The notes beneath the pieces were generated by a model. It did no database searches and had not been told where the DNA came from. It saw nothing but the letters and a program-made list of their open reading frames with translations. Positions 1 to 62,491 of a stretch of DNA of 64,000 nucleotides are shown here, in pieces (position 1 is the stretch's first letter; every line of letters starts with the position of its first letter). The position numbers and the translations under genes were made by a program. Source of the DNA: Escherichia phage T4. Where the stretch lies: the sequence record OL964735.1, one strand, 5' to 3'.

Positions 1-204
1 TTAATTCATATTACGCTTAATAACTTCAGCAACTTCTAGTAGTTCATCTTTAGTTGCGGTGTCGGATTGAATTTTATCTCTAATATCTTTAAAGCGGGTT
101 TTAAATTCTTCGGCTTCTCCCATATCGAAAAAGCGTTGAATGATTCTATATTCTCGATGAACTGCTTTATCAAAAAGTTCTAAATTTACTTTATATGATT
201 TCAT
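1..204 (-). CDS. small early protein, positional equivalent of T4 rIIA.1 (67 aa)
   Basis: Complete ORF (ATG at 202-204, stop at window edge); early promoter 230-259 directly upstream; lies downstream of gene 60 as in T4. Confidence 0.6.
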   Translation of the reverse strand: MKSYKVNLELFDKAVHREYRIIQRFFDMGEAEEFKTRFKDIRDKIQSDTATKDELLEVAEVIKRNMN

Positions 205-229
205 TTCAATATCCTCATTTGCCCAATTA

Positions 230-259
230 ATTATACCACATCCTTGTGGTAAAGTAAAC
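230..259 (-). promoter_or_regulatory. T4-type early promoter (minus strand -35 GTTTAC at 254-259, 18-nt spacer, -10 TATAAT at 230-235)
   Basis: Exact match to recurring GTTTAC-18-TATAAT architecture; upstream of the 1-204 ORF. Confidence 0.7.
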
Positions 260-791
260 TACTGGCTCATCCATTCTTTACGAAGGTCAGCATTATCTCC
301 CATGAGCATTTCAAAAAGCTCTTTCCAGTTCTCAGGAAGTTTAACAACATCATATACTGGGTTTTGAATCATCTCACGATATTCAGATTTTTCCAAAGAG
401 CCAAGTCCCTTAATATAACGGATGCTATGTTTAGGTAGAGCATCTTTGGCACTCTCATATTCAGCGACTGTATAAAACCATTCTTGTTTTTTACCGACCT
501 GAGCGATGATTACAGGAGTTTTGACAAAGCGAATTCGTCCTTGCTCAAACAATTCTGGCCAATTACTAAAAAATCCGAGCAGAGAAGGATAAATAGAACC
601 TAATCCAATAATCTCTTAATTATGAGGTATTTCTATAGATAGCCCGAAGGCTATCCATCGTGATCTGCGTCTGTCATAATAGCGACATTCGCATAGTTCA
701 TTGAAGAGGATTTAATAGAACGACGAACATTGTTCTGCAATTTATATTTTTTCATATCAACGCTAGAAGAATCAATTTTTACAAATTTCAT
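259..791 (-). CDS. 60: DNA topoisomerase II subunit gp60, translated through a 50-nt ribosomal bypass (codons 1-46 at 654-791, coding gap 604-653, codons 47-160 at 259-603)
   Basis: N-terminal segment MKFVKIDSSSVDM...MTDADHDG ends in GGA followed by TAG (651-653); second segment LGSIYPSLLGFFSNWPELFEQGRIRF... resumes at UUA (601-603); both match recalled T4 gp60. Confidence 0.93.
604..653 (-). other. gene 60 translational bypass (hop) element: 50-nt untranslated coding gap with take-off GGA 654-656 and landing GGA 604-606
   Basis: Minus-strand sequence GGA UAG CCUUCGGGCUAUCUAUAGAAAUACCUCAUAAUUAAGAGAUUAUUGGA UUA read directly; contains the UUCG-loop hairpin right after the take-off codon. Confidence 0.93.
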
Positions 792-1590
792 TATACACCT
801 CATAGAACTTTTCATCAGGAATCCAACCGCGTTTAAATTCATTAAATGCTCGGCCGAATAATTTTGAATTCACAGTTATATTATTAACTGATTTCCATTT
901 AGCAACTCCCGTTCGTTTATAATGATCGGGGTCATATTTCGTGACGTACCATTCATATAAATTTGGTATTAATTTTACAGCCTCTGGATTTGTCGCTGAT
1001 TTATTATACCATGGTTTCGCTTTTTCAAGTTCAGCTGCTTTTGCAGTAGCAGCAACAGTATTTCCAATACCAACTAATTTTTCAGTTTTAATGCGTGGAT
1101 CATTAACATGAAGACGAAAAACTTCGCCCTTTTCATTTTTAAAGCATGTCATGCCTTTAATTCCAGGAAGCTTAACACCTTTATTAACACCGCACCATTC
1201 CTTTGGGTTAAATGATCCTTTAATTAATAAGGCGCATTTACCCGATTTAATACTTCTCATTAAAACTTTATCTTTCATAAAGTTTTTTGACCATTCAGAT
1301 ACTGCTCTTTGATGGTAAATTCTAGCAATTTCATATAATTTACTAGAACGTAAATATTTTTCAGTGTTTAACATTCTATTCATCGCATATGCCATTTCAC
1401 GATTACGATGAATTTTATATAGTAGAAAATGTGCTAAAAAGTGTTCACGAAAAGTCAGTTTCACCAAATTTTCTTTATCATCAGAACCTCCCATTGATCT
1501 TGGAAGGATATGATGAATTTCACCCTTAAATTTAGAAACGCGGGTTTTACCCCGCACTATTAAGTCATTATAGATTTTTTCGTAATTCAC
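772..1590 (-). CDS. mobA: HNH homing endonuclease MobA inserted between topoisomerase genes 39 and 60
   Basis: HNH motif EIHHILPRSMGGSDDKENLV; N-terminus MNYEKIYNDLI like other mob genes; first codon reads GTG; overlaps gene 39 end by 23 nt and gene 60 start by 20 nt. Confidence 0.8.
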   Translation of the reverse strand: MNYEKIYNDLIVRGKTRVSKFKGEIHHILPRSMGGSDDKENLVKLTFREHFLAHFLLYKIHRNREMAYAMNRMLNTEKYLRSSKLYEIARIYHQRAVSEWSKNFMKDKVLMRSIKSGKCALLIKGSFNPKEWCGVNKGVKLPGIKGMTCFKNEKGEVFRLHVNDPRIKTEKLVGIGNTVAATAKAAELEKAKPWYNKSATNPEAVKLIPNLYEWYVTKYDPDHYKRTGVAKWKSVNNITVNSKLFGRAFNEFKRGWIPDEKFYEVYNEICKN

Positions 1591-3118
1591 CTACTGTTAT
1601 CCATTTACCATTAATCTGTACTTCATCATTTTCATTTACGATAATTGTATCGCCATTTAGCTCGAAAGTAAACCACTCGCCATCTTCTTTTTCTTCAAAC
1701 GCTTTTTCACCGAGAACTAGACCAGTGATTGCGCAAATATCAAATAGTTCTTTGTTTTTAAGCATATCTGCATAAGACATACCCCAACTGTTGAGAACTT
1801 TACCACGCAATGGATAACCACCGTGAAGTTCTTTATCACGAACATCAATAAGATATCCGATAGCCGAATCACCCTCAGTCAAGAAAAGAGTAGTATCAGC
1901 ATCTTTACCGCAAAGATTCGCTTTGATATGTTTATGAACCTTAGCTTTAGAAGCCTTTTTAGCTGCTTTAGTTTCTGCTGCTTTTTCTGCCGCCAATTTA
2001 CGAGCCAAAGCAGCTTCAATAATCGGCATTAGAATTGCTTCATTATTTAGAATAGCACGTGAAATCTTTTTAGCATCAAGTTGAATATGACTACGAATTT
2101 CGCCAAATGGAGAAGTCAAACGCTCTTTAGTTTGAGAATCAAATCGCATGTTTTTCATATCACGAACAAACATAACGATAGTCAAACATTCTTTGACACG
2201 TGCTTTAGTCACATCAATTTTGAACTTACGTTTGATTTGTGGAATAAGGTCTTCACAAATATCATCCATAGCGCAGTCAATGTGATGGCCACCATTCTTA
2301 GTATGAATGTTATTGACGTATGTTAATTGACGAAAACCATCCGGTGAACGACCAACCGCAATAGAACAATTTTCTTGCTCTTGAACAATAGCATGTTCAT
2401 CATACTGCCGTGCATATTTCTTAAAATTGCCCTGAACCTTTTTACCATTAAAGGTAAATTGAATATCAGGATAAACTACAGCAAGTGTCTGGAGACGATC
2501 CAGTGTAATGTCAAGATAAACTTGGGACAGCTCATTAGTTTCAAATGACATAAAATCAGGAATGAAAGTAACACGAGTTCCTTTCCATTTTCCAGGAATA
2601 TCTTCCCATGATTTATTTTCCATGCCATTTGAACAACGAACTACAATATTATTTTGACCGTCGCCAGTTTCACCGACAAACATCACAGAAAAAATGTTTG
2701 TCAAACTAGAACCAACACCGTTCATACCGCCGGTGACGCGTTCTTTATCATCACCAAAGTTACCACCTGCTTTTGGAATAGTCCATGCGGCAACAGGACC
2801 AGGAATTTCTTCACCGGTAGGTGTTTTAACCATCGCTTGTGGAATACCGCGACCGTTATCTTCAACTGTTACTTGATTGTTTTTAATAGTAACATTAATT
2901 TTATTCGCGAATTTAAACTTAGTACGAATACCTTCATCTACTGAGTTATCGATAATTTCATCAATAAGCTTAACAAGACCAGGTACATACTGAACACTTT
3001 CCCATTTACCAAACATAAAGCGCTCATGCGTTTCATTAGCAGAAGAGCCAATGTACATGCCACTACGCTTTTTGATATGTTCAATATCGCTCAGAATTTT
3101 AATTTCATTCTTAATCAT
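1568..3118 (-). CDS. 39: DNA topoisomerase II large (ATPase, GyrB-like) subunit gp39, 516 aa
   Basis: Track ORF begins GTG-ATG; ATG at 3116-3118 gives MIKNEIKILSDIEHIKKRSGMYIGS, matching recalled T4 gp39 length and N-terminus. Confidence 0.92.
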   Translation of the reverse strand: MIKNEIKILSDIEHIKKRSGMYIGSSANETHERFMFGKWESVQYVPGLVKLIDEIIDNSVDEGIRTKFKFANKINVTIKNNQVTVEDNGRGIPQAMVKTPTGEEIPGPVAAWTIPKAGGNFGDDKERVTGGMNGVGSSLTNIFSVMFVGETGDGQNNIVVRCSNGMENKSWEDIPGKWKGTRVTFIPDFMSFETNELSQVYLDITLDRLQTLAVVYPDIQFTFNGKKVQGNFKKYARQYDEHAIVQEQENCSIAVGRSPDGFRQLTYVNNIHTKNGGHHIDCAMDDICEDLIPQIKRKFKIDVTKARVKECLTIVMFVRDMKNMRFDSQTKERLTSPFGEIRSHIQLDAKKISRAILNNEAILMPIIEAALARKLAAEKAAETKAAKKASKAKVHKHIKANLCGKDADTTLFLTEGDSAIGYLIDVRDKELHGGYPLRGKVLNSWGMSYADMLKNKELFDICAITGLVLGEKAFEEKEDGEWFTFELNGDTIIVNENDEVQINGKWITVGELRKNL

Positions 3119-3170
3119 CACTTATCCTCGTTTGGTTTCGGGAATATTATACTCCGGTAATCATAAAGCT

Positions 3171-3188
3171 AAAGGCCCGAAGGCCTTT
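3171..3188 (-). terminator. intercistronic GC hairpin (GGCC-UUCG-GGCC on transcript) between 39.1 and 39
   Basis: Plus-strand aaaGGCCcgaaGGCCttt; anchored to 39.1 stop at 3188-3190; weak U-run, likely RNA-stability element or attenuating terminator. Confidence 0.5.
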
Positions 3189-3448
3189 TATTTAAAACGA
3201 ATAGTTGAATCCTTAAAGAACAGCCCAGAACATACTGTTCCTTCTACTTTCTGCCCGGTAGGTCCAATAGCACGAAATCCAGTATGCTGGAAATCATTTT
3301 CAGAGCAACCGAACCAATTATATCCAGTGATTTCAATATTAGTAAAACCACTTGAAGACAAAACTTTGGTTGCATTATCAGCATCAGTACATCCTATTAA
3401 AGACACTGCTAATACTAATGCTGCAATAGAACGATTAATATATTTCAT
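3188..3448 (-). CDS. small lipoprotein-like protein (86 aa), positional equivalent of T4 39.1
   Basis: Signal peptide with lipobox (AVSLIGC); ATG at 3446-3448. Confidence 0.65.
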   Translation of the reverse strand: MKYINRSIAALVLAVSLIGCTDADNATKVLSSSGFTNIEITGYNWFGCSENDFQHTGFRAIGPTGQKVEGTVCSGLFFKDSTIRFK

Positions 3449-4440: not shown

Positions 4441-4929
4441 TTATGCATAGAGAGCATTGCTATAGTGTTTAATCCAACTTTCAGGAATGACTTTGTATGT
4501 TCCTAAAAATACCACGTTGTACAACTTAACACCATCTTCTACCCATTGATCGGTAATGTATCCACACATAGCGCGAGTATAAACAACCCTTCCATCATCT
4601 TTAATAAAGTTAAATTCACAAGGAGCAATGAACTTGATAGCCTGACCGAGTTTCCACTTAAAGTCTACACCTACATGCGAAGTATCAATCGTTTCAATTC
4701 CTTTAGCAGGAACAGCTTTTAAAAACGCAGACTCAAGAAATTTCGCACGAACATAGCCAAACTGGGGTTTAGACTTTCCATCTTTAGGAATGATACGCAC
4801 TTTTACTTCAGAATCTTCATCTTTAACACCATGCTTAAGCTGAATGCTTACAACTTCGACCAATTTTCCTGCTGCTTTAGAACGGGATTTATCAGATACA
4901 CGAGCTAATTCACCAATATTAATAATCAT
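4441..4929 (-). CDS. motB: MotB, 162 aa
   Basis: Length and position match T4 motB; paralogous to the next ORF upstream. Confidence 0.7.
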   Translation of the reverse strand: MIINIGELARVSDKSRSKAAGKLVEVVSIQLKHGVKDEDSEVKVRIIPKDGKSKPQFGYVRAKFLESAFLKAVPAKGIETIDTSHVGVDFKWKLGQAIKFIAPCEFNFIKDDGRVVYTRAMCGYITDQWVEDGVKLYNVVFLGTYKVIPESWIKHYSNALYA

Positions 4930-4973
4930 AGTTATCTCTCACTTGTTAAAAAGATTTTATACTCCACGGGACC

Positions 4974-5003
4974 ATTATACTCTGGTCCCAAGAGTTTGTA
5001 AAC
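4974..5003 (-). promoter_or_regulatory. T4-type early promoter (-35 GTTTAC 4998-5003, -10 TATAAT 4974-4979)
   Basis: GTTTAC-18-TATAAT on minus strand; an inverted repeat GGGACC/GGTCCC (4968-4989) overlaps the -10. Confidence 0.7.
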
Positions 5004-5005
5004 TA

Positions 5006-5437
5006 TTAATTCAAAATAGCTACCACTGCACTACGAGGAACTACGGAGTACTCTCCAGCATGAACTACGTTCAGAAGTTCAACGCCATCTTCAATCCATT
5101 GGTCAGTTACCCAACCACCAATCGGATTCGCAAATGGACGACGAATGTAAACTGCCTTACACAACAAATCAGTCGGGTCTTCAGGTTTTTCAATTTCTGT
5201 CAATAGATTAAAATCTTCTTCATAGATGATGAATGATGATACCCTTCCATAATAGTTTCTAATTTCCATGTACACTGTACCAATGAGAATTCCACTATTA
5301 ACACTAATGACAGTAAAAGGATATCCGCCAGTTGTACCAAGAAGTTCCCAAAATTTGCTATCAGTCGTATTCGACATTGTCTGAAAATCAATTTCAGATG
5401 GTTTTTTCATTTGATACGCAGTATTAATTTTAATCAT
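5006..5437 (-). CDS. hypothetical protein (143 aa), paralog of MotB C-terminal region (positional motB.1)
   Basis: Shares ...TDQWIEDGVELLNVV... with MotB ...TDQWVEDGVKLYNVV... Confidence 0.65.
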   Translation of the reverse strand: MIKINTAYQMKKPSEIDFQTMSNTTDSKFWELLGTTGGYPFTVISVNSGILIGTVYMEIRNYYGRVSSFIIYEEDFNLLTEIEKPEDPTDLLCKAVYIRRPFANPIGGWVTDQWIEDGVELLNVVHAGEYSVVPRSAVVAILN

Positions 5438-40704: not shown

Positions 40705-41326
40705 CTTTATATTTCCAAGTATATCCCTTATGAATAGATTGAATTCCTTTGCAACATTTATAAACAGCAGAATGAAAAAATCCTGCATTTCTTATTTCAG
40801 TTGCTCCAGTTAGTTCTATTGTATTTCCGTCTGGTGAATAGCCAATAACCGTTTTGGTGTTAAAGCGATTTCTAGAACTATTTTTGATATGCTCTTTATG
40901 ATTAGTAGACAAAGTTCTTCCTGTTAGCCCATCAGATATCCTTTTTCCAAAATCATCAGGAAGAGTTACTTTAGACCTAGCTATGCTCATTAGCTTCTTA
41001 GTTTTATCGCTTCTTTTTGCGCCACGCTGATTTTCAAATTTCTTAGCTTTTGCATACGCGTATTGTGAAGAAGTAACTTTTCTATGCTTACTATTACTCA
41101 TTATCCAATATGCATCATACATCTTTCCACCATATATTTTAGCCAATAAATGGTGAGCAGTATAGTGGGCCTTATAAGTTAAAAATACTAAGTTGTCTAA
41201 ATCATCTGAACCACCCATACTTCTTGGAATTATATGATGAAGTTCATACCCGGCTTTAGTTTGACGGGGCTTAGATGGGTGTTCAGCAGAATTAACTAGA
41301 TTTGAATAGATTCTGTCATAATTCAT
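40694..41326 (-). CDS. mobC: HNH homing endonuclease MobC, 210 aa
   Basis: N-terminus MNYDRIYSNLVNS and HNH motif HHIIPRSMGGSDDLDNLV; between nrdD and nrdG. Confidence 0.8.
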   Translation of the reverse strand: MNYDRIYSNLVNSAEHPSKPRQTKAGYELHHIIPRSMGGSDDLDNLVFLTYKAHYTAHHLLAKIYGGKMYDAYWIMSNSKHRKVTSSQYAYAKAKKFENQRGAKRSDKTKKLMSIARSKVTLPDDFGKRISDGLTGRTLSTNHKEHIKNSSRNRFNTKTVIGYSPDGNTIELTGATEIRNAGFFHSAVYKCCKGIQSIHKGYTWKYKDEL

Positions 41327-42602
41327 TGGTGCTTAACCCTATGCATGATTTCTTTATTTTTACCGAGATTAAATCCGCGTTCGTTCGGATTTCCCAAATA
41401 ACCACATGTTCTTCTTATGGTATTCATCTTTTTAGGATCAGTTTCTCCACAAATAGAACAAACAAATCCGTTTTCAGTAGGAGTCATTTCATGGGTACTT
41501 CCACATGTAAAACATTTATCTACTGGCATATTAACACCAAAATAATCTAAATGCTGTGCAGCATAATCCCACACGGCCTCAAGACCTTTTAAGTTATTTT
41601 TCATATCAGGAAGTTCAACATAAGAAATGTGACCACCTGTCGCAATGAAATGATATGGCGCTTCACGAGAAATCTTTTCAAACGGAGTAATATTTTCTTC
41701 TACTGAAACATGGAAACTGTTAGTGTACCAGCCTTTATCGGTAACATCTTTTACGCTTCCATATTTTTCTGTATCGAGTTTACAGAAGCGATAACACAGG
41801 TTTTCAGCAGGAGTCGAATATAAACTAAAAGCAAATCCGGTTCTTTCAGTCCACTGTTTAAGATGAGCATTCATTTTAGTTAAAATTTCTCGTCCAATAT
41901 CACGACCGACAAGAATATTCAATTCGTGAATACCAATGTATCCTAAAGACACTGAACTTCTACCGTTTTTAAATAACTCAATTATGTCGTCATCAGGTTT
42001 AAGACGAACCCCGAATGCACCTTCTTGGTAAAGAATAGGAGCAACAGTAGCTTTAACTCCTTTTAAGGAACTAATTCTACACATCAAAGCTTCAAAACAT
42101 AAATCCATTCGTTCATTAAATAGCTCAACAAATTTCTGTTCATTGAACTGTGTTCCAATATAAGAATCTAACGCGATGCGAGGAAGATTCAGTGTTACAA
42201 CACCAAGATTATTGCGTCCATCAAGAATTTCATTGCCAGTCGAATCTTTCCATACGCTCAAGAAACTACGGCAACCCATCGGAGAAACAGGAACAGATGA
42301 ACCAGTGATAGCTTTATTGTTCTTAGCTGAAATAATATCAGGATACATCCTTTTGCTTGCGCACTCTAGAGCAAGCTGTTTAATATCATAGTTCGGATCG
42401 TCTTTATAAAGATTAACACCTTCTTCAACGAACATAACAAGCTTAGGGAAAATAGGAGTTATCCCATCACGACCAAGACCTTTAATACGATTTTTCAGAA
42501 TTGCTTTCTGAATCATTCGTTCAGTCCAGTCAGTTCCCGTACCAAATGTAATTGTTACAAAAGGAGTCTGTCCGTTTGAACTGAATAACGTGTTCACTTC
42601 AT
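41323..42602 (-). CDS. nrdD: anaerobic ribonucleotide reductase NrdD, exon 2 (codons 181-605)
   Basis: Joining 43636 to 42602 gives ...AYE-Y-EVNTLFSSNGQ... and a 605-aa product; C-terminal glycyl-radical region. Confidence 0.85.
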
Positions 42603-43635
42603 CAATGTGTTCAGTAGAGTTCGCTACTTCTCTACCCGTTTATATGAAACAATGTAATTTGGATAATTGTCATCTAAACACAAATCTTTAATACGACTTG
42701 GGTGGAGTTTTAAATCTTTAGCAGCATCCACAAATGATTTATAGATATTGTCATTTATTTTAACATATTCTGGGACGGGATGAATTGTTATTTTTATATC
42801 TATAACATTTGGATGATTACTAACCTGTTCTTCAGAGCATTTAAGAAATTTTGCAGCTGATTTAAAACTTCTAAATTTATTTCCGGATTTTAAAGCTATA
42901 GAAACAGTCTTTTTAGCCGTTCTACTACCAATATTATTTTTAACATGAGCTTCACTTCTACTATTATTTTTATAATGCTCAATCAATTTCTCTCGTATCT
43001 TATCTTTATGTTTTAAAGATAAGATTTTACCTTTATGGGCATTACTAAGTTTTTGCTTATGTTCTTCTGAATCCGGATATTTGTTAAATTTATATCCACC
43101 TATAGATTTATTAAGAATAAATTCGTTATTAAAATATTTCCTAATAAGCATTTCTTCATGTTTAAGGGCCGATTCATAAGAATCAAAAACTTGAAGAATT
43201 ATCCACTTAGCTTTATAATCTTTAAGCTTTTCTTTAACAAGCTTAGATGACGAATTGTATTCTTTCCAATTTGTATCTTTACCATATATAGTTTTGAATT
43301 TTTTAAAACCTATATAAAAAGACTTATCAGGAAATCTTACCATATAGGTAAATGCTACAGAATTGGCAATTTTTAAGCTTTTTCTTAATTTCCATTTCAT
43401 CGTTTCACCTCGTATTCATATTTATACGAGGATAAACAGCTGCATGTCACCATGCAGTTCAGACTATATCTTCAACTCTTAGAGTTGTCTGCCGTTTCGG
43501 GTCGCTTGACCCTACTCCCTTACATTCATCAGGGATAGTCGTTGGGCATTTACAGCTACTGCTGATTTAGCAACGGATTGTCTCAGTGAGAGTTTCCCGT
43601 TTTAGGCAGATTTTACATGAGCTTGACTTACGTTA
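42603..43635 (-). mobile_element. group I self-splicing intron in nrdD (1033 nt) carrying the I-TevII ORF
   Basis: 5' exon ends in U (43636), intron ends in G (42603); the 1033-nt length and restored frame match the known T4 nrdD (sunY) intron. Confidence 0.85.
42624..43400 (-). CDS. I-TevII: intron-encoded GIY-YIG homing endonuclease I-TevII, 258 aa
   Basis: Entirely inside the nrdD intron; GIY-YIG-like motifs (FTYMVRF ... SFYIGF). Confidence 0.85.
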   Translation of the reverse strand: MKWKLRKSLKIANSVAFTYMVRFPDKSFYIGFKKFKTIYGKDTNWKEYNSSSKLVKEKLKDYKAKWIILQVFDSYESALKHEEMLIRKYFNNEFILNKSIGGYKFNKYPDSEEHKQKLSNAHKGKILSLKHKDKIREKLIEHYKNNSRSEAHVKNNIGSRTAKKTVSIALKSGNKFRSFKSAAKFLKCSEEQVSNHPNVIDIKITIHPVPEYVKINDNIYKSFVDAAKDLKLHPSRIKDLCLDDNYPNYIVSYKRVEK

Positions 43636-60665: not shown

Positions 60666-60931
60666 TAGTATTTTTCCTCTGGTTGGAACACTGCACGACA
60701 AGCCCACATACTGGCTTCTTTGAGTTTCGTTTTAGCAATAGTTAACTGATCGAGACTTTCAGCATAATTCTTCGCGAATTCACAGTCTTCGCAATTATCT
60801 AGTGCTTCCCAGAATTCATCATATAAAGCATCAAAGATAAGTCCTAAACGAACTTCAGCGTCTTTAATAGCATTTACTTTACCGATTTTCTCTTCAGTAT
60901 GTGGTTTATAACCCTTAATATCTTCAATCAT
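60665..60931 (-). CDS. hypothetical 88-aa helical protein (positional vs.4)
   Basis: [18 protein letters not shown]... with SD GAGGAAG. Confidence 0.55.
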
Positions 60932-61145
60932 ATTTGACTTCCTCACCAGTACATAAATCGTATTCAACTAAACGAATAGGTTCATGAATGCCATAGCCTT
61001 GAACAGAAATTTCTGTCGTAGGATAAATTCCATCAATATCACCCATATTCCACGCTTCATTAAATTGCTGTTCGCCTGAGTTACTAAACCACTCGGCGAA
61101 AGCATTTAGCACATCTTCAGAACCTTCAATAATTATCTTTGCCAT
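60924..61145 (-). CDS. hypothetical small acidic protein (73 aa; positional vs.5)
   Basis: ORF in track. Confidence 0.5.
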   Translation of the reverse strand: MAKIIIEGSEDVLNAFAEWFSNSGEQQFNEAWNMGDIDGIYPTTEISVQGYGIHEPIRLVEYDLCTGEEVKYD

Positions 61146-61507
61146 TACAAACTTTCAGTAAAGGTACGAGCGATAACGTCGCGCTGCTGTTCCGGAGTCA
61201 GAGAGTTAAAGCGAACTGCATAACCGGATACACGGATGGTCAGCTGCGGATATTTTTCCGGATGCTTAACTGCATCTTCCAGAGTTTCACGACGCAGAAC
61301 GTTAACGTTCAGGTGTTGACCACCTTCAATTTTAACTGTAGGTTGTGGCTCAATTTCAATTTCACGGGCATGCAAACCATAGAAAATTTCTGGGTCTACA
61401 AAAGAGTCCTCTTTAAAGGTTTTAGAGACAATAATTCGTGCTTGAATACCATCTTCAAAATAAATAGTACCTTTATGTGTGCCTTCAAGAATTTGATATG
61501 CTTTCAT
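61145..61507 (-). CDS. autonomous glycyl-radical cofactor (GrcA/YfiD-like) protein, 120 aa (positional vs.6, T4 Y06I-like)
   Basis: C-terminal [29 protein letters not shown] glycyl-radical motif; the 3' half is GC-rich with host-like codon usage. Confidence 0.8.
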
Positions 61508-61514
61508 ATAAACC

Positions 61515-61844
61515 TCAATTAGAAAATAAATTTATCCAAGATTGTTCTTTAATTAAAAATGGCTCAGAATCATATGCCATTAAACTTTGCGTAATTAATC
61601 CTTTAAAAGGTCCATCAATAAATTCCATGGTAAAATATGGAATTTTATTCATTAGCCGTGCATTAGGAGCAGTGCACAAAACTCTGCATCCTTTGAATAC
61701 GCCTTTTTGTAATTTGTATTGCTTGGGATAAAATTCGCTCAAAATGTTATTTTTTGCCAAAATTTCAAAATGATTCACCAATTTATTTTTAATAGTTTTT
61801 GGCGAAAAATAAAGATATTCGAAAAGCTGAGTGTCTGTCATCAT
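61515..61844 (-). CDS. hypothetical protein (109 aa from ATG at 61844; positional vs.7)
   Basis: [13 protein letters not shown]... forms an ATGA overlap with the upstream ORF stop. Confidence 0.5.
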
Positions 61845-62491
61845 TGCATTCCGATTACGAAAAACTGTGGACGAGTAATACCACCAATGCAACATTTACT
61901 ATTACAGCAGTAGTGTACGGTGTCAATATGGACACTATAAATCTTATCCATATCAGGAGATTTGACAGGCTCATCAATTATATACAAAATTCGCGAAAGC
62001 TTTAAACCTCTGAACTTGCTTCCTTTATTACCAATAAAACTGCGTACAGAATCAGTAAATAAACGAAAACGTATATCATCATTAGAATAACGCGAAAATT
62101 CCTTTTTGATGTTATTTGCAGAAATTTTAGCATAAGCTGAAGTATTAGAAAGAACAATAACTGTTCCGCCATCATACAACCAATTAGCAGCAAAGTTAGT
62201 CACAGCAATTGATTTACCGGATTGACGTCCACCATCTAGTCGAAGTGTACAATACTGTTTAAGTAAGTCTTCAAATGGCGGGATATATTCGTTTTTACAA
62301 ATTTCTTCTACTCTAGCATCAGAATGGTGTGTAAAAGCATTCATCAGGGATAGATAAGGACCAGTTAAAAATGTTCTCATTTCTTCTCTATAAGTTTGGG
62401 CCATTCCGTGGCGCATGAATTGTCCATTTCTGTATTTACCCATTACCGCGCTTGGGCTCGACCTTATTACAGGTTGGCGGGAATCCCTCAT
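61841..62491 (-). CDS. P-loop NTPase-like protein (up to 216 aa; start uncertain; positional vs.8)
   Basis: Walker A LDGGRQSGKS and Walker B-like ILYIIDEP; several candidate ATG starts. Confidence 0.55.
   Translation of the reverse strand: MRDSRQPVIRSSPSAVMGKYRNGQFMRHGMAQTYREEMRTFLTGPYLSLMNAFTHHSDARVEEICKNEYIPPFEDLLKQYCTLRLDGGRQSGKSIAVTNFAANWLYDGGTVIVLSNTSAYAKISANNIKKEFSRYSNDDIRFRLFTDSVRSFIGNKGSKFRGLKLSRILYIIDEPVKSPDMDKIYSVHIDTVHYCCNSKCCIGGITRPQFFVIGMQ

Follow-up and report, generated by a model that had tools for sequence, protein, structure and literature searches.

How did a gene of a virulent phage come to read, over its second half, like the gene of its host? The question is raised by vs.6 (Y06I) of Escherichia phage T4, which occupies positions 61145..61507 on the minus strand of the 64,000-nucleotide stretch of record OL964735.1 analysed here (hereafter, the window). 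The gene comprises 120 codons and a stop, and by the open reading frame (ORF) list, the identity to annotated T4 records and the matches to Pfam and PHROG its product is a small stand-alone glycyl-radical protein, which RefSeq names 'autonomous glycyl radical cofactor GrcA'. A preliminary description, made from the letters alone, treated this ORF as a mosaic and referred to a T4 homologue, Y06I; the name was right, but the ORF is Y06I itself rather than a homologue of it, and several T4 genome records are 100% identical over a 701-nucleotide query around it. The C-terminal peptide quoted in that description is the exact end of the 120-residue protein encoded on the minus strand. We consider it highly probable that vs.6 is a pre-existing phage homologue of grcA whose radical domain was replaced by host DNA, and that its product serves as a spare part for pyruvate formate-lyase (PFL).

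The host-identical block

Positions 61152..61329 (minus strand) match Escherichia coli grcA at 178 of 178 nucleotides. The block corresponds to nucleotides 179-356 of vs.6 and nucleotides 200-377 of E. coli grcA, with zero mismatches, and it encodes residues 60/61-119, the glycyl-radical domain. All complete E. coli genomes examined carry the match (5,426/5,426). Beyond the block, the 3' end of the gene at 61145..61151 (minus strand) begins with two synonymous differences at 61150-61151 (AGT TTG in T4, AGC CTG in E. coli), followed by TG and the stop codon TAA. On the other side, the phage-type 5' part at 61330..61507 (minus strand; gene nucleotides 1-178, residues 1-59/60) is AT-rich, follows T4 codon usage and encodes a region homologous to the N-terminus of GrcA but diverged from it, with 49% nucleotide identity to E. 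coli grcA. Maximum-chi-square analysis places the breakpoint after gene nucleotide 178, with an identity of 0.49 to its left and 0.99 to its right, and none of 1000 permutations reached the observed value. Control sequences also step in identity at the same position as T4, from 0.54 to 0.79. When the whole window was compared with complete E. coli genomes by megablast, only this block was returned, together with an echo of it in pflB. Because the nucleotide identity to pflB is only 79%, against 100% to grcA, the donor was grcA and not pflB.

Composition changes along with identity. GC content is 0.49 in the block and 0.34 in the 5' half, and GC content at third codon positions (GC3) is 0.41 and 0.19, respectively, which places the block within the top 2% of 59-codon windows in T4 ORFs; by itself, GC3 makes the block only a moderate outlier. 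A further ORF with high GC3, at 4844-5206 on the plus strand, was rejected as an antisense artefact. Codon choice in the block is more extreme: all five leucine codons are CTG and all three proline codons are CCG, which in the T4 ORFs of the window make up 7% of leucine codons and 16% of proline codons. The codon log-likelihood of the block under T4 usage falls in the lowest 0.6% of 59-codon T4 windows, and T4 usage would yield these same 59 codons by chance with a probability of ~1e-29. The preliminary description had set a GC-rich 3' part with E. coli-style codons against an AT-rich 5' half and had called the gene a mosaic. GC, GC3 and codon likelihood bear out the former, and the grcA alignment and the breakpoint bear out the latter.

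An identical peptide does not require identical codons, and we counted codons at residues that are identical to E. coli grcA and have synonymous alternatives. The T4 block shares 58 of 60 such codons with E. coli grcA. The 3' halves of phage type found in CC31, Slopekvirus, Krischvirus, T5-like phages and an Aeromonas phage share 23-31 of 48-58, and phages from IMG/VR that encode the identical 60-residue peptide (L107-L109) share 32-34 of 59 with their best-matching host grcA (L090). Among bacteria, the grcA of Citrobacter shares 47/60 codons with that of E. coli, and the grcA of Salmonella 34/58. The preliminary description had asked whether nucleotide identity to host grcA is only what protein conservation predicts, and it clearly lies far above that level (58/60 against 23-34 of 48-59).

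The same comparisons point to a donor genus. Over its last 183 nucleotides, T4 matches E. coli at 181, the cryptic Escherichia clade at 179 and other genera at no more than 168 (80 species sampled). For reference, host grcA genes match E. coli over these 183 nucleotides at 181 (Escherichia sp.), 170 (Citrobacter) and at most 169 positions (others). These values suggest that the donor belonged to Escherichia, after its split from Citrobacter and Salmonella. As read from sequence alone, the direction of transfer is from host to phage, with an identifiable donor lineage and a block in host codon usage. The acquisition of a host gene fragment that was first proposed thus stands for the 3' block, which is of E. 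coli origin, with the correction that the fragment patched a grcA homologue already present.

The phage gene and its relatives

At the protein level, vs.6 resembles GrcA throughout. Pfam Gly_radical (PF01228) scores 66.8 bits against a cutoff of 22.2, and PHROG 1209 (phrog_1209), which PHROGs v4 labels 'unknown function', matches the full length of the protein. The GrcA structure PDB 6owr is matched by phmmer with E = 8.6e-42, with GrcA residues 28-127 aligned. Over its C-terminal 60 residues the protein shows 100% identity to GrcA residues 68-127, and PflB residues 697-759 (PDB 1cm5/1h16) match with E = 5e-26. The codon for Gly95, within the motif RVSGYAV, lies at 61223..61225 (minus strand), and this glycine aligns with GrcA Gly102 and with the radical site of PflB, Gly734; its radical role is taken from published work on PFL and YfiD, as given in PMC8683613. 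The protein has the structure by which GrcA is defined, namely ~120-130 residues with an N-terminal region and a C-terminal glycyl-radical domain and without a catalytic barrel.

Like E. coli GrcA (YfiD), vs.6 is a stand-alone protein of ~14 kDa whose N-terminal region is homologous over its whole length. It differs in being 120 rather than 127 residues long, in lacking from its N-terminal half (N-half) the NSFWLLD motif conserved in GrcA, and in its location, which is a run of small early genes in a lytic phage, whereas E. coli grcA lies beside ung. PflB is a 759-residue enzyme that shares the domain and motif of vs.6, but its catalytic barrel has no counterpart in the phage protein. According to the published account, the C-terminal domain of PflB is the piece that vs.6 and GrcA replace once oxygen has cleaved PflB at Gly734.

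The preliminary description interpreted the gene as a fusion, with its N-terminal domain from the phage and the remaining module from the host. We found instead that the N-half is itself homologous to GrcA and that sister phages carry full-length genes. The N-terminal 60 residues alone match GrcA residues 28-67 by BLASTP (35% identity over 40 residues, E = 5e-6), and hhalign, applied to N-half profiles from 8 phage and 9 bacterial GrcA sequences, aligns the two end to end over 61 columns with a probability of 95.7%, E = 1e-8 and 28% identity, covering GrcA residues 2-67. By tblastn, homologues of vs.6 are found in 1,588 phage records, nearly all of them full-length, across many Straboviridae genera, T5-like Demerecviridae and jumbo Yersinia phages, and the C-terminal 60 residues are extremely conserved across all phages and hosts. 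Karamvirus CC31, Slopekvirus, Krischvirus, T5-like and Aeromonas phages use phage codons in the 3' half, which is only 70-80% identical to any sampled host gene, and phage-type blocks are retained in RB43-, RB49- and T5-type phages of E. coli. Members of PHROG 1209 with such a 3' half (CC31, Slopekvirus, RB43-like, Krischvirus, T5-like and Aeromonas phages) share the architecture and radical domain of vs.6, but they match the sampled hosts at only 129-154 of 183 nucleotides and 20-38 of 46-60 codons, whereas the 3' half of T4 is a verbatim host copy.

The edges of the block are sharp, and homologous sequence of the recipient type flanks it on both sides. Immediately 5' of the block T4 reads GTT AAA ATT where the host reads GTT CGC GTT; AAA ATT also precedes the block in Mosigvirus and Jiaodavirus (with the preceding valine encoded by GTA in Jiaodavirus), and CC31 has AAA GTT. 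At the 3' edge T4 reads AGT TTG, and Mosigvirus and Slopekvirus read GAG AGT (T/C)TA. Taken together, the GrcA-like N-half, the full-length relatives and the phage-type codons on both sides indicate that the ancestral gene had both halves, written in phage codons, and that approximately codons 61-118 were overwritten.

A parallel patch is present in Klebsiella-infecting Jiaodavirus (Shinkou, JD18 and >100 others). The N-half of these phages is orthologous to that of T4 (131/180 nucleotides in Shinkou). Their 3' block has a GC content of 0.56, is 97.6% identical over 168 nucleotides to grcA of the Klebsiella pneumoniae/variicola group but only 85-89% identical to E. coli grcA, and encodes the Klebsiella-specific residues L77 and E81. 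The 5' junction falls at the same codon as in T4, and the block ends ~7 codons before the stop, leaving the phage-type sequence ACT TTC ACA GAG GCA CTA in place.

The E. coli-type block occurs in ~620 phage records, including Tequatrovirus and Mosigvirus, at 95-99.5% identity and always starting from grcA nucleotide 200. Between T4 and Mosigvirus, 157-159 of 177 nucleotides of the N-half are identical, as are 39-41 of its 51-52 codons capable of synonymous change, against 52/56 to 56/56 codons of the core block. This contrast between N-half and block has a Fisher p of 0.0004-0.002 for RB69 and RPN187, and of 0.03-0.05 for two other Mosigviruses. The genes that flank vs.6 are 68-78% identical in nucleotide sequence between T4 and RB69. 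As the block is less diverged than either the N-half or the flanks, the E. coli-type block appears to be younger than the split between the T4 and RB69 genera, and it may since then have been gained separately, renewed from host DNA or moved from phage to phage. Additionally, host-like and phage-like alleles are mixed in the last three codons of T4 relatives (GAA/GAG, AGC/AGT and CTG/TTG/CTA), a patchwork that variable tract ends would produce.

Individual phages add detail to this picture. Escherichia phage OES_C-2 (Tequatrovirus; L177, 229-585) has a two-codon deletion in the N-half of vs.6, which leaves 118 residues. Its 3' end, AGC CTG, is the most host-like among those examined, with 184/185 identity to E. 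coli grcA; here, the N-half can absorb indels and the block nevertheless keeps the host sequence. Block type tracks phage lineage and not isolation host (records H47, H63, H59/H192, H183, H154 and H107). In Tequatroviruses isolated on Yersinia, Proteus, Citrobacter and Salmonella, either the block is of the E. coli type or the vs.6 protein has 98-100% identity to that of T4, and 'Salmonella phage PSE-D1' carries a Klebsiella-type block. Klebsiella phage vB_Kpn_AM_K4 (Straboviridae; L176, PP355766.1) also has a Klebsiella-type block, in a vs.6 nearly identical to that of Jiaodavirus (N-half 169/180, 3' half 178/183); its record is 288.7 kb long, against 166 kb in Jiaodavirus phages, and may be a composite assembly. 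Some IMG/VR loci were rejected. A candidate Yersinia-type phage block (L124; IMGVR_UViG_2706794630_000006, 1-3294) is host chromosome, grpE-ung-grcA next to a prophage-like gene, and its grcA is bacterial, Yersinia-like and full-length. Loci L164-L174, considered as vs.6, are pflB C-termini instead.

Rival accounts and the route of exchange

The sharp break in composition and identity at gene nucleotide 178/179, and the fact that Pfam finds the C-terminal Gly_radical domain only, would suit a fusion between an unrelated N-terminal domain of the phage and a piece of grcA captured from the host. We regard such a fusion as very improbable, given that the N-halves of vs.6 and GrcA can be aligned over their full length, that the two-part architecture is shared by CC31, Slopekvirus, Krischvirus, T5-like and Aeromonas phages, whose 3' halves use phage codons, and that phage-type codons persist 3' of the block. 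We attach just as little credence to one ancient capture of the whole of grcA, after which the 5' half drifted and the 3' half was kept host-like by selection, with no later recombination. The extreme conservation of the C-terminal 60 residues in phages and hosts, and the step that controls also show in identity, would accord with such a history. However, selection on the protein yields only ~50% codon identity even where the peptide is 100% identical, as in L107-L109, and the T4 block is nearer to E. coli grcA than the grcA of Citrobacter or Salmonella is. The Klebsiella-type block of Klebsiella phages with an orthologous N-half also argues against an ancient capture, as does the fact that the T4 and Mosigvirus blocks are far less diverged than their N-halves or flanks. 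Finally, if host reads or a chimeric assembly had put E. coli sequence into the phage record, a perfect 178-nucleotide match to the propagation host is what one would expect to see. The probability of such an artefact is negligible in our judgement: the block keeps the reading frame, its junctions recur in hundreds of phages that were sequenced independently (the separate 8-kb T4 record X04567 among them), it bears lineage-specific substitutions and has its own version in Klebsiella phages, and the encoded protein has been studied by biochemistry.

A separate matter is how often the replacement took place. We lean towards the view that in T-even phages the vs.6 radical domain (~160-180 nucleotides) is a recurrent target of host-to-phage conversion, replaced independently in different phage genera by grcA of the host genus of each (Escherichia in Tequatrovirus and Mosigvirus, Klebsiella in Jiaodavirus) and refreshed in some lineages after their split. 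It seems unlikely, by comparison, that a single E. coli conversion in the ancestor of Tequatrovirus and Mosigvirus was followed by ordinary divergence, with the Klebsiella block as the only other event. This simpler history would fit the start at grcA nucleotide 200 in all ~620 E. coli-type phages, the scattered lineage-specific substitutions within the block, and the marginal contrast between N-half and block in two of the Mosigviruses (p = 0.03-0.05). It fits poorly with RB69 and RPN187, which differ from T4 at 0-1 of 55-56 block codons and at 10-11 of 51-52 N-half codons, and with the low identity of the T4 and RB69 flanks. The patchy 3' boundary alleles among close relatives also speak against a single event, as does the divergence of the block from E. 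coli, which does not track that of the N-half (Killian).

Several points weigh against our interpretation of vs.6 as a repeatedly host-patched gene for a PFL spare part. The block of Killian (Tequatrovirus; L178, 218-580) contains 10 scattered synonymous differences, and its N-half is identical to that of T4 at 175/177 nucleotides. Neither a sampled alternative donor nor phage-type alleles match these differences, and an older unrefreshed patch, an unsampled donor and sequence quality are all candidates for their origin. Queries with Salmonella and Enterobacter grcA returned no host-matched phage block, the best matches (84-86%) all being to E. coli-type phages; to judge from the genomes compared, host-matched replacement is recurrent and not universal. 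T4 degrades cytosine-containing host DNA, and exchange between phage and host is thus expected to be rare. The common 5' junction of two independent events is explained by inference only, namely that homology ends there. The NCBIfam equivalog for GrcA, TIGR04365 (spare_glycyl), aligns with residues 20-120 but at 153.3 bits misses its cutoff of 170, a shortfall that we attribute to the divergence of the N-terminal 20-60 residues. The in vivo benefit of the spare part and its link to formate, both taken up below, are presumptive, although the latter is plausible.

No direct or inverted repeats were found flanking the block. Neither does the locus look like a mobile-element or homing-endonuclease cassette, as an endonuclease gene and an inserted segment are both absent, and the relatives examined show the same gene length and order. 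The transfer mechanism that we suggest is based on the form of the tract. A phage 3' half ~70-80% identical to host grcA may have recombined with host DNA during infection. The sole substrate for this exchange would be the 70-80% nucleotide similarity that protein conservation keeps across the radical domain, and the tract ends lie at the limits of similarity between phage and host (at codon 61 towards the 5' end, and a few nucleotides short of the stop codon towards the 3' end). T4 recombination-dependent replication works with invading 3' ends. The exchange may have been homeologous recombination, or a phage 3' end may have copied a host fragment and then re-annealed to phage DNA, and such copying would account for sequence derived from cytosine DNA within the modified DNA of the phage. 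In Jiaodavirus, a separate replacement from Klebsiella grcA would have occurred.

The nearest analogue appears to be the patchy intragenic recombination between host and phage reported for cyanophage psbA and psbD, by Zeidner in 2005 and Sullivan in 2006. These systems resemble vs.6 in that a phage copy of a host metabolic gene swaps patches with the host, which produces a mosaic ORF. They concern another gene, other hosts and other phages, and the vs.6 patch is set apart in being exact (178/178), bounded by homology and confined to one protein domain.

Function, neighbourhood and significance

Wagner et al. 2001 (BBRC 285:456), as cited in PMC8683613, showed that the PFL-activating enzyme places a glycyl radical on YfiD and on T4 Y06I and that both proteins restore the activity of oxygen-cleaved PFL, and a 2021 JBC paper names the two as the sole validated spare-part proteins. 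The repair of a glycyl-radical enzyme (PflB) that the preliminary description predicted had thus already been published for Y06I, and it fits the matches to GrcA and PflB. In the published biochemistry, with which the sequence agrees, host PflA puts the radical on Gly95 of vs.6, and the activated 14-kDa protein docks onto PflB cleaved by oxygen at Gly734, so that PFL activity is restored. T4 shuts off host expression and may hence carry its own spare part, by which PFL would be kept running under fluctuating oxygen. Running PFL would supply acetyl-CoA/ATP, as well as formate for anaerobic deoxynucleoside triphosphate synthesis by NrdD. Formate is both the electron donor of T4 NrdD and a product of PFL (PMC4390871).

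The preliminary description also considered repair of the phage NrdD, and we think it improbable that vs.6 is a spare part for this enzyme, with NrdG as its activator, and not for host PFL. It is well established that oxygen cleaves NrdD, too, at the position of its glycyl radical. In Aeromonas phage PX29, vs.6 lies inside an nrdD-nrdG-nrdC-nrdH cluster, and a role in nucleotide metabolism was suggested by Nolan et al. 2006. However, vs.6 has no detectable similarity to the C-terminal part of T4 NrdD (BLASTP E = 1.7), whose exon (41323-42639, minus strand) encodes the radical motif RRTCGYLG and an unrelated tail. The radical domain of vs.6 is instead identical to that of GrcA and matches the C-terminal domain of PflB, the repeated overwriting of this domain with host grcA sequence is in keeping with a host partner (PflA/PflB), and Y06I is reported to have reconstituted cleaved PFL. 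In PX29 (L181, 859-4447) the gene order is nrdD-nrdG-vs.6-nrdC-nrdH, and vs.6 overlaps the end of nrdG by 23 nucleotides; in T4, vs.6 and the class III ribonucleotide reductase are 19 kb apart, without linkage of this type.

The gene stands in a series of co-directional small genes, ordered denV, vs.8, vs.7, vs.6, vs.5, vs.4, vs.3 and regB. Its stop codon overlaps the start of vs.5 (TAATG), and a probable Shine-Dalgarno sequence, GAGG at 61513..61516 (minus strand), is located 5 nucleotides upstream of its ATG and overlaps the vs.7 stop. A promoter and terminator scan around vs.6 gave a number of sites not above that in shuffled sequence, and there were no Rfam matches in or around the gene. 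Both neighbours, vs.5 and vs.7, belong to PHROGs of unknown function. In the two Tevenvirinae checked for gene order, RB69 has vs.7-vs.6-vs.5-vs.4 and CC31 has vs.7-vs.5-vs.6-vs.4. The vs.5 gene (window 60924-61145, minus strand) is a 73-codon ORF here, a length shared by RB69 and other relatives. In the T4 reference (NC_000866/AF158101) it is annotated with 58 codons, and the sequence has one C fewer and an AT/TA swap (NC_000866.4, 2900-3160), which probably reflects either a sequencing error of long standing or a frameshift in the reference strain. The vs.7 ORF (window 61515-61895, minus strand) has a possible ATG that would give 126 residues, against 109 in RefSeq, and the old T4 record X04567 gives both start options; the PHROG match covers residues 18-126 and thus favours the shorter form.

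The gene, its family and its function were already known, as the preliminary description acknowledged, and a 2006 paper reported that vs.6 is conserved and carries a Gly_radical domain. Neither the nucleotide-level host identity nor the Klebsiella counterpart was found described in the literature open to search, which did not include the main review of the T4 genome, and an earlier notice is possible. The value of vs.6 is evolutionary, and it lies not in a new system but in an exact copy, readable junctions and a parallel patch from Klebsiella. These features make it an unusually clean and experimentally testable natural case of host-to-phage gene conversion in a virulent phage. The block is also a strong host-genus signal for T-even phages, and the exact match of 178 nucleotides means that host-prediction methods based on exact matches would link T4 to E. 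coli. If conversion is indeed recurrent, the block would record the long-term host of a phage lineage. It would then further provide direct evidence of recombination with the host chromosome in strictly lytic phages, whose own DNA is modified and which break that chromosome down.

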